Shown: positions 42,022-50,504 of the stretch, piece after piece
Numbering within the stretch: position 1 is the stretch's first letter
How the letters are laid out: every line of letters starts with the position of its first letter
DNA from: Tricharina praecox
Taxonomy: Eukaryota
DNA length: 56,897 nucleotides
Assembly: GCF_024521635.1 (NCBI RefSeq)
Contig: NW_026250424.1
Span: 620,001-676,897, forward strand
Reading direction: 5' to 3'
Translations under genes and position numbers: made by a program
Notes under the pieces: generated by a model
The model's input: the letters and a program-made list of their open reading frames with translations, nothing else
Database searches by the model: none
What the model was told of the DNA's origin: nothing

Positions 42022-45000
42022 GTTGTGTGTGTTGGGGGAAGTGGGTAGAGCTTCAGGTGGATAACGAAGGTATCAAGCACGACAGTGTCGAGGTGGAAGC
42101 CGAGGGGGGCAATCGATGATGGGAGTAGGATGGGAGAGAGATCCGATTCCTTGAGTTTGTTTTCGTAGGGAGGAGGGGGGAGCGAGGGTGAAGTCGAGTT
42201 GTTGGAGTGAGAAGCAGAACTGAGAAGAAGTCTCAGAGATAGAGGGAGCTCGTGTTGGGTTTTGTAAGTGATGAGGACACTTTGGAGATTCAGCGCATCG
42301 GGTTTAGACAACTGCGTGACCCTGAAAGAGGCCACTTTACCACTTCCATCTGTACTACGCTACTTGCTACGCTAACTAAACTCGATCCGAAACAAGAAGG
42401 AAAGGCGGTTTATGCGCGACGAAAACCCTAACCCCGTCTTCACCGCCTGGCACGCGGAATCGTGGAAGGTTCTAGATGAAGGCATGACATTTTGGGTTTC
42501 TCTTGGATTATTCGACCCAGGCAGCTTTCAATTCTTCGTAGACGCCAAATTCGAGACCCGACCGTAACGGCGAGTGTGTTGGTGAGAACAAATTGTCGCG
42601 AAATGTGTTTGTTTCTCGAGTCTTGGGTGGCAGTATGAGTATCTCTGCGCGAAATTGAAGGGGCCGCGGCCGCAGTATCAACGACAGGGTCCACGTATAC
42701 CAGATCTTTCACAGAACCACCCCACAAGCCGCTGCAGAAAAGTTTATCTAACGGCTCCACGTAGATTACCCAGTTGCTTTTGCAATTGTGTCTTTCCACC
42801 ATCACCGAATCTTCCGTCGGCGCCGACCACCGGTTACTGCTGTGTAATACCCGGTTGGCTGCATACGGGATGTGTAGAATAGCCGCAAGAACCACCACCG
42901 ATGGCTGCATGCTGCATGCTGCGGAAGTCTCCAGCTCTGCGTGCGCTACGACACCGGCGAGTCTCGAGCATTCTCGAGGATCACTGGTGAAAAGTGGCGA
43001 GCACGCGGAGAATTTGGCTCGATGTGATTGCCAAGGTGTAAAGTTTGCCAATCACAAGCTCCGGAAGTATGTACACTGCTCTCTGCACGATGCGGCCGTT
43101 AACAGAAATCATCTCCATCCAAGTGCCGCCGGTTACCATGAGCCCGAACGCCGTGTTCTGCTAGCTTGTTCGGGCAGACATGCACATACCATCTGATTGT
43201 ACAGGCCGAGCATTCACTTCCGACATCTCAACATCATGCTGCGCAGGCTTCAGTCCCTGGGAAGCTAACACTGACTCAAAGTGAGATACGTGAGGTATAT
43301 ATAGCCTTTCAGCAGCTACTTTAGGTAGGATAACACTCGTACAACAAAACACCTTCTCCCTGGAAACAAAATCACGGAAGGACACCGCCCAAGAGCACTT
43401 GAACGAGGTCAAAAGACACTCATGTATCTTTCCGCCAATATCCACCAGAGTATCCAAAGGCTTTAGAGCCCTCTGCCATCCAGCCTTGGAGGTCAATACG
43501 GGATAAGTATCATCCCGAGGCTCCAGACGGAAGAATCTATACGGCGTGTAAAGCTAGGGCTCAGCCCATGCTTGAAAACGAGCGCTAAATCAAGTACCGA
43601 TATCAGCCCTCTGGACTCTGGAGTCTGAAGTCTGGAGTCTGGGGTCTGGGGTCTGGGGTCTGAGGTCTGCGCTCCATCACAACCCTTGCTACATACCATG
43701 ATTAGCCAAAATAACAAACTTCTATGAGTGAGGTGAGGTGAGGCGCACAGGATCCTATCCAAAAAATGTAAACATTTCGAGTAAAATGCAGAATGGCGGA
43801 GGTCCTAGAGGAACATACATACGCGGATGGGATTCTGAAATTTCTAGCGAGGATCACTCGTGGTCGGGTTCGGGATGAAGACGCCTTTGAAGCCGAGCTT
43901 TGCGGCTGCGGGTACTGTTCCCGTACGGCCGACCATGAGCAGCGGGGAACAGCTCGACGCCGCATAGGCGGGGAAGCCACTCACCTTGAGAAGTGGTATG
44001 TACCTAATGTATGTACCACTATGGTCGAGAAAAGCAACCACATATAGGTATGCATAGTACATACATTGTACAAAAAGCAATGAAGCCGAAGACTTTGTTT
44101 CCCTACTAGTAGCCCTCCATCACCAACCGCATAGTACCTATCGAGTAGGTACCTAGGCGGATATCTTTATGTTACATATTCCGCTCTTATGTGCCCTCTA
44201 CATACTGCGCTTGGGAACGACCACAAGACCGCCGCCGCGTCTAGAAACCGCAATACTTCAGACGACAGTCCGCGGCTCCATGGCTCCGCAGGGTAGACAG
44301 GCAGGGTGGCTATCGGCACGACGAAATCGTTGACGAATCCGGTGATCGGCTACCTACCTAACCTAGGTATGTCACCGACTCTACTATGCAGTAGATATAT
44401 ACTCCGTCAACATATTGCAATCTGCATTTATCTGGTATGTACCTGCATATCCGGAGGATATGTAAGCTTGCGCGGTAAATGAAGAACCCAATCGTGCAGA
44501 AGGCTGAAGCAGCCGACGACGGCCGGACCGACCGCGTTTCCGAGGGGTTGGTCGTTTCCGGCTTATGTGTGTGGGTGGGTGGGTGTGGAAAGGCATTGAT
44601 ATGTGGCGCCAATTATTGATTTTGCGGTTGATCATAGAATCGCATACGATTTCTAGCATAACATCATAGATAGACGAGTCGGTGCGACTGCCAGACGAAA
44701 TGGTTGTTGAAAGGGTTTGTTTGCTTGTCTCATCCTACGTAATCGTATTCAGTCTACTTATCTAGACTATGCGGAGTAATACATAGAAGTAGTTGCTGCA
44801 AGGAATTGTTGAGTTTGTCGAGTTTGTCGAGTGGTAATAAAACGAGTGCGATTTCGTGAATGACTCTCATTAAGGCTGCGTTGAGCCTTGGCCGACCTAG
44901 GTAATCGGCTTGAGGAACTTGGATATTCAAGCTTTATTAGCTGAGTATGTACCATCTATCTCTCAGGATAAGCCATGCGGATTATTCACTGATGGAGTAG

Positions 45001-45324
45001 ATACGCCATTTGTTTTTGGCGAGAATTCTAAACATTCAGACGATTTTGTAGGGAGTGCGGACTATTCAACAGTATGGCCTAAGTTGAGTAGGCGTATGAA
45101 TGTGAGATATAGAGGTGTAGATTTGAATGGTGGTAGCACGTGTGACAAATATTGCGAAAGACATTTATTGTGAAAGAGCCAGATCAGACAATTTGTTATG
45201 GTGTTTCCGTAGATTCCCCGCCATCCTTCGTAATATACCAGCATTGATCCTCCAAAGACAGTACAAAAAAAACTTTCATCATCATAATTCGTTAGAGAAG
45301 TAGCCCGATCCTTACCAGCTGTCA

Positions 45325-46040
45325 TCAACCACAAACAGTGCGGCGGTCGTAGATAACTTCGAGGCCGAAGATTATCGAACACTGCGGTGGACCCACTTGC
45401 GGGCCCCTAATACTCTCGTCAACAATAATTTACTTGATCATACTTCATCAACAGGAAACTCACCAATACAAACTCCAATTATCGCCGCTCCTACAGCCCA
45501 TCCAACTACCAGTAGACTGCCCATATCCCAGCCAGTTCCGACCGTCAGCACCGCGGATGACAGCAAAGCTATCCCACAAGGTCAATGCCGGGATTGTGTC
45601 GGTCTGTGGGTCGCTGCTGAAGACGTAGTACATCGGACTTCCGTGAGTGGGACGGAACCAACTACCACACACCGGCACATTAGTTCTCTCCTCCCCGCAT
45701 ACCCCTTCTCTCTTTCGCAGAAACACAGAAGACGAGTAAGTACATACAGAATATTTTCTGGCGCGGAAGCATCGTGGAGTTTTCCCCATCCCGCCTGCGA
45801 GGGATCGGTGCGGTTCCCGTACGGCTCAATGTACCCGCGGTAGTTGCGCCCGGGCGTAGCAAACCACCCGAGACGCCAATCGAGATAGCCCCAGGTATTG
45901 ATAGGCGCTGGAGCGCGAGTGTCGGCACGCAGTCGGAAAGTGCGGTATCTCGGTCTGCCGGGGCCACACCGTCCTTCCTGGGCGAAGACGGTGGCGAAGA
46001 GCAGGAGGGAGAGGAGCGTGAAGAGGATAGACGGCTTCAT
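45325..46040 (-). CDS. Small secreted Trp/Cys-containing protein, 190 aa; exons 46040-45748, 45661-45464, 45406-45325
   Basis: Signal peptide MKPSILFTLLSLLLFATVFA; introns GTATGT...CTAAT...GTAG and GTGAGT...TTGAC...TTAG give a continuous 573-nt frame ending ...PPQCSIIFGLEVIYDRRTVCG*. Confidence 0.78.
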
Positions 46041-46651
46041 TTGCGAGTTTCTTTGATGGCGAGAAAAAGAGTCTCTTTGAGAGTCGTGCCCGAGCCAGCA
46101 ATTTATACACATATGGAGGTGGGGGCCGAATGCCCGCCCATTCGCCCACGCAGTGCACGCACGGCACAGGCCGGATGCGTCCTCGCTCCAGCTCGTATTC
46201 CCCACGCATGGTCCAATGGATCCATCGGCTCGATTGGCGAAACCGACATCGTGCCGTGCGCCACGAGCGTCATGCCTGCACATGGTTGTTATTTTTGTAC
46301 ATATCCCATTCGTATACAGACTTTCCTACAAGTTGCACAAGGGACCGGGAACGATGTGTCTCCAAATGGAAGTATCGCGGTGTTTACGTTGCACACGAGC
46401 CAGAGCTGGGAAATCTCGGTCGGTCCATCGGATCCAGCTCGTATTACCTGGAGAATTTGGCGGATGGAGTTTGACGCATGCGCGCAATAATTGTAGTGGT
46501 ATCCTAATACTTAAGTAAGAATTACTTTAAGAAGTAATTTTATATTTTAGGTTTCACTTCGCTTGAGCCTCGGCGTTCGCCAATCAGCTTTCTGTATATA
46601 AATTTAGCGCAATTATTCAGTCATAGAGTAGTACTCGATTCTTGACTGGCG

Positions 46652-46803
46652 ATTCATTCTGAGGTTGTTTGCTTGTGATGGAGGGAATTCGTCCTTTAGG
46701 GCTTGAGCAAAAAATATCAGACTTACCATTCATTCTGAGGTTGTTTGCTTGTGATGGAGAGAATTCGCCCTTTAGGGCTTGAGCAAAAAATATCAGACTT
46801 GCC
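46652..46803. repeat. 76-bp tandem duplication, 2 copies
   Basis: ATTCATTCTGAGGTTGTTTGCTTGTGATGG...ATATCAGACTT at 46652 and 46728; 3 transition differences. Confidence 0.92.
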
Positions 46804-47044
46804 AGTTACAAGGCTGAGATGCTTCACCAACCTCCAACCTCCATCCTCTCTTCCCGCTACAACCTCTCATCTCACAATTACTTCCTACCACACACACCCT
46901 ACTTCCTTCATCCAACCAACCAACCACAACACCACAAATTTTCGACACCACGTTCGCAACCTCTCCACTCAAGATCAACTAACCTCACGAAAGTACCTTA
47001 CCTTTCATTCACACTTCTCATCTCATCCAATCGCATCCTTAAAC

Positions 47045-48419
47045 ATGTCTCCGCAATACTCGAGCCTCTTCGGCAGCCTCAGCCCTGTGAGGATATCCGA
47101 TGGATCTCTCATGGAGCAAGAACCCTGCTCCGAAGATGTCTAAATTAAGCAAGAACCCCGCTCCGACGATTTCGACATTAAGCAAGAGCATTGGGACGAA
47201 GAGGTCACCGTTATGCGAAGATATACCGGTAATTGAAATTGCTACGAAAAGTCAGAGCCCCGCGAAGAAGATTTCTATATTAAGCAAGAATCCGAATACG
47301 AAGAATTTGCTATGCATCAAGAGTCTCGAAGCGAATCAGTCGGTGTGAAGCAAGAGCATTGGGGCGAAGAGGCAGCCGCCATGCAACAACATACCGGAAA
47401 TTGGAATGACTCCGTAAAGTCAGAGAATTGGGACGAAGAAGATGCTTACATCAAGCAAGAGATCTGGCACGAAGAAGATGCCTACATCAAGCAAGAGGAT
47501 TATGACGAAGAGTTCGACATCAAGCAAGAGAGTTGGGACGAAGGTTTCTACATCAAGCAAGAACCCCACGGGGAAGATTTCGACATCAAGCAAGAGAATT
47601 GGGACGAAGATTTCGAAATTAAGCAAGAGGATTGGGACGAAGATATTGACATCAAGCAAGAACCCCGCGAAGAATATTCGAGTCCTGCTTTCCAACAGGA
47701 GTATGAAGAAGATGTTGAAACGGGAAGCGGTGGTCGTCAGAGGATGAGGCAGGATATCAAGCGGGAGTATCTCAAGAGGAAGATAGACGTTGAGCCGCAG
47801 AATTGGGATAGAATGGAAGCTGGAAGGGAGTCTTTCGACGGCTCACGACAGGTGGCATGAGCTCTGGCAACAAGAAGCCACGAATTAAGAAGGAAGATGT
47901 CGAGGTCGAGGAAGAAAAGCAGGTGGAGGAGAATGACCGCAAGACGGCCCCCAAAGTCACGTTGTCCGAGATTTTCCGGGCTGGTCAGATCAAGGTGGGC
48001 AATGTTTTCAGCCTTCGGAGGAAGTTCAAGAGATCTTGCAAAGGATATTGGGTTCGCAAGAATGCTGTGGTATGCACCTTCTTCGATCACGTAACTCTCC
48101 TAGGGAGGTCAGATTAATAATTGTGCACTAGATTACCCACACTGCCCCTTCTGGGAGTGCATTCGGTGTCCGCTACGCCCCAGGCACCGCGGAAATCCCC
48201 ACCGACAAGCCGGATGACAAAACGGCCAAGAACATATCATCGCTCAACGAGCTGATGATTGTTCTTGGCCGGGAGCACGGAAGACCAGTGAAGAAACAGT
48301 TACAAGACAACGCGTGGAATCTTCTCTGGCTCTTTCGCTCCGGGGAGGAGGAGGATATCCAGTTGACTCTGCTCAAGCAGAAGTACCGCGAGGGGAAAAT
48401 AGGCGAGGATGAGGCGTAG
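47045..48419 (+). pseudogene. Disrupted gene: IKQE acidic repeat array plus RAMA-like C-terminal domain (intron 48070-48131)
   Basis: One frame from ATG 47045 with stops at 47141 and about 47234, ORF 47312-47860, frame break near 47850, then KVTLSEIFRAGQIKVGNVF...ISSLNEL...NAWNLL...LTLLKQKY to TAG 48419. Confidence 0.6.
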
Positions 48420-48675
48420 GGGGGATTTGAGGGGGATGTGAGGGGTGATTACATTTTTTGCATTTTTTAAAAGTTCAATGACATTTGTTTTACGTTTTAT
48501 ACTTTTGTTGTTTTTTTGGCCAGACTTGATTGTTTTTTGGCGAGACTTGGTTTTTTTCGGGGTATCATTTACCCCCAAGTTCCAGTTGCTCATGAATGTA
48601 TCATGTAAATCAAGAGTGTTTGCGTGTTTACTAGCTACAAGAGCATTAGAGTGAATGAGAATTCCATGTAGAGTT

Positions 48676-48678
<3 letters not shown>

Positions 48679-48724
<46 letters not shown>
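48679..48724. repeat. (AG)n microsatellite, about 22 units
   Basis: Read directly. Confidence 0.95.
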
Positions 48725-48726
<2 letters not shown>

Positions 48727-48848
48727 TCGGTTTATTTCGCATGCAGCCTATCGGGACTATGGCGAATCATGTGGTTACGTTAATTAGCTAGCAATTCGTC
48801 TGAAGATTGTTGGATTATATTCTATGTCAAGTGCACTAAATAACAACA

Positions 48849-48929
48849 GGCGTTGTGGCCGAGTGGTTAAGGCGAGAGATTAGAAATCTCTTGGGTTCGC
48901 CCGCGCAGGTTCGAGTCCTGTCGACGTCG
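48849..48929 (+). tRNA. tRNA-Ser (anticodon AGA), intronless
   Basis: Acceptor GGCGTTG/CGACGTC, D-arm GCCGAGTGGTTAAGGC, anticodon stem AGAGA-TTAGAAA-TCTCT, long variable arm GGGTTCGCCC, T-arm GCAGGTTCGAGTCCTGT, G discriminator, downstream oligo-T Pol III terminator. Confidence 0.97.
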
Positions 48930-49135
48930 CTATGTTTTTGTTTTTTTTGGCGAGATGCTTTTGACTGCACAACTACCAGCAGGACTGTCGCTCGGCATTG
49001 ACGTGTTCAGGGATGATGGTCATGTAGATAGCCTAAAAGTAGAGTGCCGGCGACGATCACACACTTTATTTTGACCCCGCCAAAAACTTTTCCAACCGCA
49101 ACCCTTCATCTTCGCCATCTTTCTAGCTTTTAACC

Positions 49136-50119
49136 ATGTGCGCCGACCACAATACCGAAGCCTTGATCTGCTCCGATGGTAAGCAGAATATCATCCTCGC
49201 TTCTCGATTAGCTACGTCTCGAACTGACTCATCAGTCCAGACCCAAATCACCCCGCTAACTTGGTACTTTCCTTCATCTCCCCAGCCAACAACATCCAAG
49301 CTTACAGCGCCGCAGATCTGCAGTCTCTGCCGCAACTTCTACACTCTTGGCTGGGTACCTTTCCTCATATCGCGCATCGTGCCCAACCCATCCTGATGGC
49401 CAGTCCCTAGGTCACTGGTACTGGCGGAGGCATATCTATTCGCGAGCGCACTCCCGACCATGACCACATCTTCCTCGCGCCGTCGGGTGTCCAAAAGGAG
49501 CGACTGCAGCCGGACAACATGTTCGTCATGGACTACCCCACGCAGACCTACCTTCGCAAGCCCGTGGATCTAAAGCCTTCCGCGTGCACCCCGTTGTTCA
49601 TGGCGGCGTTCAGCAAGCGCGGCGCGGGAGCGTGCATCCACACCCACTCCCAGGCTGCGGTCCTGTGCACGCTGCTCACAAAAGGGAAGACCTGGTCAAT
49701 CGCGAACATCGAGCAGATCAAGGCTATCCCCAGGCCGTCCACTGGGGGCTACATGGGGTTCTTTGATACTTTGACGATTCCTATCATCGAGAACACTGCG
49801 CAGTGAGTGCTATTGTCACGCTTCCTTTCTACAGTCTGCTGAGATCCCCGTAGTGAGGAGGATTTGAGGGAAAGCCTGGAGAAAGCCATCGAGGAGTACC
49901 CGGACACCTGCGCGGTGCTGGTGCGAAGGCACGGAGTGTAAGTCGCCATCTTTTTGGCAAGCGGGGGGACCCATCTAACAATGCAGCAGCTACGTCTGGG
50001 GCGATACGGTGTGGAAAGCGAAGACACAGGCTGAAAGCCTGGACTACCTTTTTGAGTTGGGCGTCAAGATGGTGCAGTTGGGGCTTGATCCAGCGGGAGC
50101 GATTGCTCCTGTAGAATAA
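49136..50119 (+). CDS. MDE1: Methylthioribulose-1-phosphate dehydratase (methionine salvage), multi-exon
   Basis: [73 protein letters not shown]. Confidence 0.94.
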
Positions 50120-50504
50120 ACAGATACTGGGTGGATGGTGGTTCTAGCTTGTGGCAGCGTTGCTGGATGGTGCCGGACGGTACCTTTCTTCTCCGCGACC
50201 GTAATTCTTATTCTACCTGAAGTACCATGTATGATGGAGTTTGGGGGTTTTGTACGGTTACCATGCACATTAAAAAAGCTTTTGTCTTTCTTTGCATAAT
50301 GGGGCTCTCCCGAGGCACCGAGCCCATTCCATGAGCCACATTCAGTAGAATCTCGAGTGATATTTCGTGGTCGCAACGTCACACAACTGTGTCACCTAGT
50401 CTATGCGAGCTCGACAAATTTGCATGGATCATGGTCGCGTCGCGTTTTCCCTTGAAACTCTACTTCCATTTTACGCCTCACCAACGCCCACCTTAAAAAC
50501 TACC

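Follow-up and report, generated by a model that had tools for sequence, protein, structure and literature searches.

The stretch of DNA analysed here, which will be called “the window”, comprises 56,897 nucleotides of the genome of the fungus Tricharina praecox (positions 620,001 to 676,897 of contig NW_026250424.1 in RefSeq assembly GCF_024521635.1), and the locus that is the subject of this work occupies window positions 47045 to 48419, where a tandem array of short acidic repeats is followed on the same strand by a basic domain with ends that resemble those of the RAMA DNA-binding domain. The window is ordinary fungal chromosomal DNA: 14 of the 30 long open reading frames (ORFs) scanned match housekeeping Pfam families, which include fumarate reductase/cytochrome b5, isopropylmalate synthase, Dus, GH76, Sec7/BIG, Nop14, calnexin, DEAD helicase and class II aldolase. 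An earlier reading of the locus, made from the letters of the DNA alone (the “sequence-only reading”), had proposed that the repeats and the domain form a single polypeptide. The interpretation favoured here, to which a probability of roughly 0.45 is assigned, is that this is a lineage-restricted, weakly transcribed protein-coding locus in which two modules lie side by side without sharing one ORF. Because the modules are set apart by a stop codon together with a -1 frame change, and because two nonsense codons truncate the array, the locus is taken to be a gene pair of recent origin or else one ancestral gene in early decay. The features are collected in Table 1.

Table 1. Features of the repeat/domain locus, in window coordinates, with the evidence on which each assignment is based.
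Feature	Position	Strand	Basis
5' extension of the repeat array, read as decayed, in the same frame as the repeat ORF	47045..47311	+	translation, Tandem Repeats Finder, codon usage
Repeat ORF, 182 amino acids plus stop, acidic and aromatic-rich, ten psi-K-x-E sites	47312..47860	+	translation, codon usage, RNA contigs
Core array, nine units of 33/36 bp: I/V-K-Q/S-E, x-W/Y/H/R, then an acidic and aromatic stretch	47414..47683	+	Tandem Repeats Finder, unit alignment
Exon 1 of the downstream ORF, 71 codons, K/E-rich start resembling a nuclear localization signal, then RAMA-like N-terminal motif	47857..48069	+	
Candidate phase-0 intron, 62 nt, GTATGC...CACTAG	48070..48131	+	size, codon usage
Exon 2, 95 codons plus TAG, C-terminal part of the basic domain, with N-A-W..L-W and L-L-K-Q-K-Y motifs	48132..48419	+	

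The acidic repeat of 11-12 amino acids described by the sequence-only reading is real. Tandem Repeats Finder reports a period of 33 bp (7.1 copies at 47422-47661, with 71% matches), together with a 99-bp super-period of 2.5 copies at 47422-47674 and a second 33-bp array of 2.2 copies at 47115-47187, and the units are evident in the translation of the array frame, frame A. Between the ATG at 47045 and position 47860 this frame contains 13 psi-K-x-E sites, ten of which fall within the repeat ORF and have exactly the composition claimed for them (VKQE, VKSE, seven IKQE and IKRE); three of the repeat units carry I-K-Q-E-P. The acidic patches said to follow most sites are likewise present, since at least two D or E residues occur within the next eight residues at 12 of the 13 sites, the exception being the IKRE at 47756. 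When the residues of the repeat ORF are shuffled 5000 times the mean number of psi-K-x-E sites is 0.48 and the maximum is 6, compared to the ten observed, although the ten did not arise independently, since they all stem from the copying of a single repeat unit.

The pattern of variation among the units separates the motif from its surroundings. In the seven clean 33-nt units the 12-nt core that encodes the motif differs at 5 of 84 sites, every one of them a synonymous third codon position, while the remaining 21 nt differ at 38 of 147 sites (Fisher p ~1e-4). Over 12 units the core changes are again mostly at third positions (six in the Ile/Val codon and four in the Glu codon), and the others are two A-to-G changes that replace Ile by Val and one unit in which Gln is replaced by Ser. 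Outside the core, the pairwise codon differences among six units comprise 13 synonymous and 67 non-synonymous cases; what is preserved in the units is only the motif and the acidic/aromatic character. Given the purely synonymous variation of the core in the seven clean units, the IKQE core looks constrained at the level of the protein.

The product of the repeat ORF has an isoelectric point (pI) of 4.28 and includes 55 D and E and 21 W, F and Y residues among its 182 amino acids, with W, F or Y set within runs of D and E in every unit. The single-sequence AlphaFold2 (AF2) model has a predicted local distance difference test score (pLDDT) of 39.9, with values below 50 for residues 1-128, so that the protein is predicted to be disordered and the array would thus be accessible. 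Acidic activation domains and the tails of histone chaperones are characterized by an acidic composition with aromatic anchors, which the composition of the locus fits; to our knowledge, however, those regions are not exact tandem repeats and carry no conserved lysine motif. The combination of psi-K-x-E with a following acidic patch defines the negatively charged amino acid-dependent SUMOylation motif (NDSM), a concept related to the synergy-control motifs of transcription factors. The sites of the array would conform to this motif to judge from their residues and from the predicted disorder, but the array has ten sites in one tandem series of 182 amino acids, whereas the NDSM and synergy-control substrates known to us have one or a few sites each. 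An 11-residue amphipathic-helix repeat of the apolipoprotein or late embryogenesis abundant (LEA) type was also considered for the array and was rejected, since the I, W and F residues of the unit do not share one helical face.

The sequence-only reading had added four further sites to the ten of the repeat ORF, three IKQE upstream and one IKKE downstream. All four exist, but none belongs to the repeat ORF. The IKKE is in a different frame from the array. The upstream sites, at 47144, 47177 and 47279, are in the same frame as the array, but the first two are cut off by in-frame stops (TAA at 47141-47143 and TGA at 47234-47236), and the third precedes 47312, the first ATG of the stop-free stretch. 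Since the TGA at 47234 is aligned with a TGG (Trp) codon of the paralogous segment 47345-47461, and the TAA at 47141 occupies the place of GAC or TAC in other units, the 5' end of the array is read as decayed; in the repeat unit that ends at 47143 the I-K motif has been lost as well. Repeat-induced point mutation was considered as the origin of the stops and rejected, since that process acts in a CpA to TpA context, with which changes of TGG to TGA and of TAC or GAC to TAA are at odds. Today the segment 47045-47311 is probably a promoter or 5' untranslated region (UTR).

The coding character of the locus was evaluated with a codon-usage log-odds score trained on 5466 codons of the Pfam-supported ORFs of the window. 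On this scale chunks of true genes have means of 0.30-0.31, and chunks read in the wrong frame have a mean of -0.36 with maxima of 0.20-0.28. The repeat ORF (47312-47857) scores 0.35, exon 1 (47857-48069) 0.40 and exon 2 (48132-48416) 0.33, which makes all three gene-like, and the candidate intron is non-coding-like, with scores of about -0.4 to -0.6 whichever of the six frames is read. The 5' extension scores 0.06. Transcription was assessed from a public run of the same organism (X1, labelled ‘RNA?’), in which both neighbouring genes display GT..AG joints. Two contigs of this run, 47247-47507 and 47600-47840, match the locus with no mismatches, and a third at about 48184-48416, with a depth of 2.4, is inferred from bin depths. 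The depth over the locus is 2-3, and the bins on either side (46206-47210 and 48417-48617) are empty; 735 of the approximately 1170 nt of the locus are covered, compared to none of approximately 1400 nt of flanking intergenic bins. The first contig begins after the second in-frame stop, and the first ATG from its start is the one at 47312. The transcription of the locus is therefore real but very weak.

Several features of these data weigh against the interpretation favoured here. Codon-usage tests tend to favour sequence that is rich in K and E, and a 33-bp periodicity leaves several frames open irrespective of selection. The RNA depth of 2-3 at the locus is 100- to 800-fold lower than the depths of 406 and 1754 at the neighbours; the contigs give no strand, and the interval 47841-48183, which contains the junction between the modules and the candidate intron, is without cover. 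The very low depth and the lack of strand information would also fit a locus that encoded no protein at all, in which a GC-balanced 33-bp minisatellite and the sequence next to it had produced ORFs by chance and the RNA came from antisense or pervasive low-level transcription. In line with this, the array leaves four of the six frames open, and the searches described below recovered no homologues. Such an origin is nevertheless improbable, because the three coding pieces score at the mean of true genes, above every wrong-frame chunk of similar size, with a non-coding-like intron between two of them, because the synonymous-only variation of the IKQE core is specific to one frame, and because the RNA covers the locus while leaving the flanks empty.

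The downstream module begins where the repeat ORF ends. Its frame is open from 47812 to 48117, and its ATG at 47857 overlaps the TGA of the repeat ORF (47858-47860) as ATGA, so that the domain lies in another frame, displaced by -1. The sequence-only reading had predicted that splicing out 48070-48131 would yield a domain, and this prediction is borne out to the extent that removal of the segment opens the 95-codon continuation, whose codon usage is gene-like; in size the candidate intron is comparable to five nearby introns confirmed by RNA (51-86 nt). The resulting basic domain consists of about 137 amino acids (47944-48069 joined to 48132-48416) and has a pI of 9.75.

The same reading had also joined the array to the domain in one protein, as a poly-SUMO acceptor array coupled to a RAMA reader of N6-methyladenine (6mA) or otherwise modified DNA. 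In this genome the repeat array and the basic domain are not one open reading frame, and the claim of a fusion is contradicted by the stop codon and the frame change, for which no convincing intron compensates. A fused polypeptide would have to arise through an unrecognised intron, ribosomal frameshifting or a base missing from the assembly at the junction. The modules are adjacent, lie on the same strand and fall within one transcribed interval, the ATGA overlap means that a single-base difference would fuse them, and the acidic patches downstream of the psi-K-x-E sites, as well as the precedent of an acidic region beside RAMA in the protein MPND (in the available text of PMC9963953), fit such an arrangement. 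But not one of the 95 GT..AG pairs that would restore the frame has a consensus donor as well as a credible branch point and acceptor, and the sole GT donor after 47840 is a poor GTGGCA at 47852 with purine-rich, coding-like sequence behind it. The RNA contig 47600-47840 is unspliced and follows the genome without a difference, so that the short homopolymers in 47812-47840 are confirmed and an error in the GGG/TTT runs is excluded; an indel in the assembly is therefore possible only in 47841-47857, where one extra base would fuse the two frames seamlessly. With RAMA membership itself unproven, and with 6mA selectivity of MPND not reproduced in the structural study as far as its available text goes (PMC9963953), the fused reader is distinctly improbable, and its functions as a SUMO scaffold and 6mA reader are speculative.

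The junction and the 5' stops also bear on the possibility that the locus is a pseudogene, in which a single ancestral ORF that ran from the ATG at 47045 into the basic domain was recently inactivated by a 1-nt frameshift near 47841-47857 in addition to two nonsense mutations in the array, so that the residual transcription is non-functional. Three disabling lesions occur within about 800 nt of sequence that is otherwise homologous to the repeats or positive in codon usage, one base added near the junction would fuse the frames, the RNA depth is far below that of the neighbours, and no annotated exon-2 protein is found among 1.84 billion cluster representatives. In the remaining ORF, however, the IKQE core still varies only synonymously, and codon usage and motif are lost only upstream of M47312, which suggests that selection still acts on 47312-47860. 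The RNA cover, moreover, begins after the second stop and thus makes 47312 the first AUG. A pseudogene is for these reasons considered unlikely, though with a chance that is far from negligible, and the locus may in any case be decaying.

The assignment of the basic domain to the RAMA family was evaluated with profiles built from a reference set of 50 bacterial RAMA regions, all with near-full model coverage and no internal stops, which were obtained by searching the Pfam model PF18755 (gathering cut-off 35.2 bits) against samples from four bacterial phyla and against five genomes that had been reached by way of loci. Matches to the model occur in four of the five genomes and in 85 of 301 genomes of one phylum sample at E<=0.001, and in 13, 11 and 13 of 301 genomes of the three other samples at E<=1e-5. 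Two loci from unpublished genomes were left out of the reference set; the null set may include segments from them, and none of the scores given here derives from those segments.

Against the all-member profile the spliced domain scores 10.0 bits, compared to 8.0 for the best of 2000 shuffles, and it reaches 11.0 bits against a trimmed profile and 12.7 against a profile without CcrM, with a best non-RAMA score of 6.8 bits among the 498 real-protein segments that serve as its null; the score is significant as a single pre-stated test, and not after correction for a search of all families. When the 1372 six-frame ORFs of the window are ranked, the exon-1 ORF comes first with each of the three profiles (17.7, 8.7 and 11.0 bits, with runners-up at 5.2-6.2 bits). 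Profile-profile comparison with hhalign gives a probability of 63% and a score of 29.6 for the spliced domain (best of 300 shuffles 20.0), 80% with an E of 1.4e-5 over 29 columns for exon 1, and a P of 0.029 for exon 2, which is aligned at the expected colinear place through its N-x-W...L..L+..Y end. In hmmsearch the stretch that corresponds to the N-terminal helix-turn motif of the family (p-r-V-x-f-x-x-L-v-e-a-G-l-l-x-p-G-e-x-L) obtains 7.4 bits, the C-terminal N-x-W part adds about 0-2.6 bits, and the middle of the domain is unaligned to the profiles. Pairwise Smith-Waterman comparison with the 50 regions, with z up to 4.8 and a median of 1.7, is too weak to serve as evidence by itself. In a positive control on the PDB, the bacterial profile recovers CcrM (6PBD) at 111.9 bits and human MPND (7YDT) at 27.1 bits, and distant eukaryotic members therefore score low.

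The points in the other direction are substantial. A Pfam hmmscan of exon 1 (71 amino acids) and exon 2 (95 amino acids), run on the separate exon pieces alone, contains no RAMA row at E<=10, and a scan of the four pieces of the locus gave nothing relevant. The RAMA signal is essentially a single N-terminal helix-turn motif of 27-29 residues, and unrelated designed armadillo-repeat proteins, which rank next after MPND in the PDB, match the same region of the profile at 4.6-7.0 bits per repeat. In an alignment of 25 bacterial RAMA regions (A1), G75 and W79 are invariant, and W76, A43 and R94 nearly so; in the N-A-W-N-L-L-W and L-L-K-Q-K-Y motifs of the locus the Trp is kept, Arg is replaced by Lys, the second Trp is displaced by one position, and the invariant Gly of N-G-W has become Ala. 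The AF2 model of exon 2 alone is all-helical and, with a pLDDT of 55.4 and a predicted template modelling score (pTM) of 0.34, uninformative. The RAMA-like domain of the sequence-only reading thus survives as profile scores above their nulls, and not as a family match, and the chance that the basic domain has the RAMA fold, as judged from these profile comparisons, is put at a little under one half.

A further point against the favoured interpretation is that none of the collections searched yielded a homologue of either module, which leaves the coding assignment, the intron and the function without comparative support. For exon 2, phmmer against the 1.84 billion cluster representatives yielded only two weak matches, P0001 (6273 amino acids) and P0002 (1899 amino acids); tblastn confirmed 0 of 399 pattern stretches in prokaryotic genomes and 0 of 509 in metagenome contigs, the PDB offered by sequence only neurexin (E ~0.5), and the best score in the ESM Atlas was 0.83, to unrelated clusters. 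P0002 contains at least five copies, about 380 amino acids apart, of a unit weakly like residues 37-94 of exon 2; as a relative it was rejected, because the identity is 23-26% over 56-58 amino acids in a repeated unit and was judged to be a chance resemblance inflated by repetition. For exon 1, word-indexed search among longer proteins scored 0 of 41 candidates, the PDB returned nothing by sequence, and residues 27-71 had no usable match in the ESM Atlas. For the repeat ORF, word-indexed search at near length recovered only the ORF itself, whose 182-residue protein is a single-member cluster (P0003) called on one contig of 1610 nt; among longer proteins 0 of 537 candidates matched, and in metagenome contigs tblastn confirmed 0 of 20. 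The sequence-only reading had suggested a search for intact paralogues, and within the window tblastn and blastn found none. On the basis of these searches the locus would be a lineage-restricted orphan. A literature search at the level of titles and abstracts, on RAMA in fungi and on tandem arrays of SUMO consensus sites, returned nothing pertinent, and the combination of an acidic SUMO-consensus array with a RAMA-like domain may, on this weak evidence, be unpublished.

The surroundings of the locus contain several other features. A 76-bp direct repeat at 46652-46804 (2.0 copies with 96% matches in Tandem Repeats Finder, and a blastn self-match of 93% over 85 bp) sits about 250-400 bp upstream of the ATG at 47045, in the untranscribed flank, and might represent either a promoter element or the scar of a duplication. 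The neighbour on that side, at 45185-46047 on the - strand, is very highly expressed (RNA contig depth 1754) and has RNA-confirmed introns at 45406-45462 and 45662-45747; its ORF starts with a hydrophobic stretch like a signal peptide, the ORF 45585-46325 has no Pfam family at 1e-5, and the product may be a small secreted protein. On the other side, a perfect (AG)22.5 microsatellite at 48679-48723 lies between the locus and a tRNA-Ser gene (anticodon AGA) at 48849-48930, 430 bp downstream, and an Rfam scan of 44000-50000 identified this tRNA only. At 48873, a position 32 nt short of its end, one RNA contig (depth 357) has A where the genome has C; the difference could come from a further copy of the gene, from a misread induced by a modification or from an artefact at the contig end. 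Beyond it, at 49354-50268, is a class II aldolase (MtnB-like) gene with three short RNA-confirmed introns (56, 51 and 52 nt); the donor region of the first, GGTACC, is atypical, and its cut point is ambiguous.

The closest known arrangement to that of the locus is the combination of an acidic region with RAMA in MPND. According to the available text of the structural study (PMC9963953), acidic regions flank the RAMA domain of MPND, inhibit its binding to DNA and promote its binding to histones; the RAMA domains of CcrM and MPND make contacts to the backbone of DNA that are not sequence-specific, and binding by MPND was not raised by 6mA. This last result is in dispute with an earlier study, the available part of which describes a 6mA-selective pull-down by MPND (PMC6591016). 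The locus resembles MPND in that a basic, RAMA-type, putative DNA-binding module lies beside a strongly acidic region (pI 9.75 versus 4.28), and an N-terminal motif V-T-L-x-x-[IL]...G appears to be common to both in the profile alignments. It differs from MPND in having no MPN/JAMM domain, in an acidic part that is a 33-bp tandem repeat with an I-K-Q-E core and not a plain acidic stretch, and in the placement of its parts in different reading frames without detectable relatives, its RAMA membership not being established. To CcrM (6PBD) and the bacterial RAMA domains of PF18755 the likeness is colinear at both ends, in the N-terminal helix-turn and in the C-terminal N-x-W...W and L..L+..Y; bacterial members score 55-83 bits against Pfam RAMA, however, whereas the pieces of the locus have no reportable match, and the Gly-to-Ala replacement in N-G-W noted above also sets the locus apart.

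If the two-module interpretation is correct, the products of the locus might function as follows. The first module (47312-47860) would be a disordered, strongly acidic-aromatic protein encoded by the 33-bp repeat, with I-K-Q-E as its invariant part, and the second (47857-48069 joined to 48132-48419) a basic domain with ends resembling RAMA. By analogy with the RAMA domains of CcrM and MPND, the basic domain may bind duplex DNA or nucleosomes, largely without sequence specificity, and the acidic-aromatic array could act as the flanking acidic regions of MPND do, by countering the binding of DNA and promoting that of histones. To judge from their consensus, the repeated psi-K-x-E lysines would be plausible targets of Ubc9 that are able to tune binding to DNA or histones. 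There is only a slender chance that a single protein contains both modules, whether by recoding, by a splice that has escaped recognition or in strains that lack the frame change, as a RAMA-fold binder of DNA or nucleosomes gated by about ten Ubc9-consensus lysines in acidic-aromatic, histone-binding repeats; if that were true, the single protein would be a new type of chromatin factor with a switchable multi-SUMO platform.

The motif array is thus real and seems to be selected, while the fusion architecture is unsupported and RAMA membership is unproven. The locus cautions that a domain called by eye needs a score at the level of the fold or the family. Its main value at present is as a coding minisatellite with a short motif under selection. 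If the RAMA fold proves to be true, the basic domain would be a highly divergent, stand-alone fungal member of the family beside an acidic module, in an echo of the logic of MPND, and the locus would provide a compact natural system for the study of how acidic tails and SUMO tune a non-specific binder of DNA or nucleosomes.

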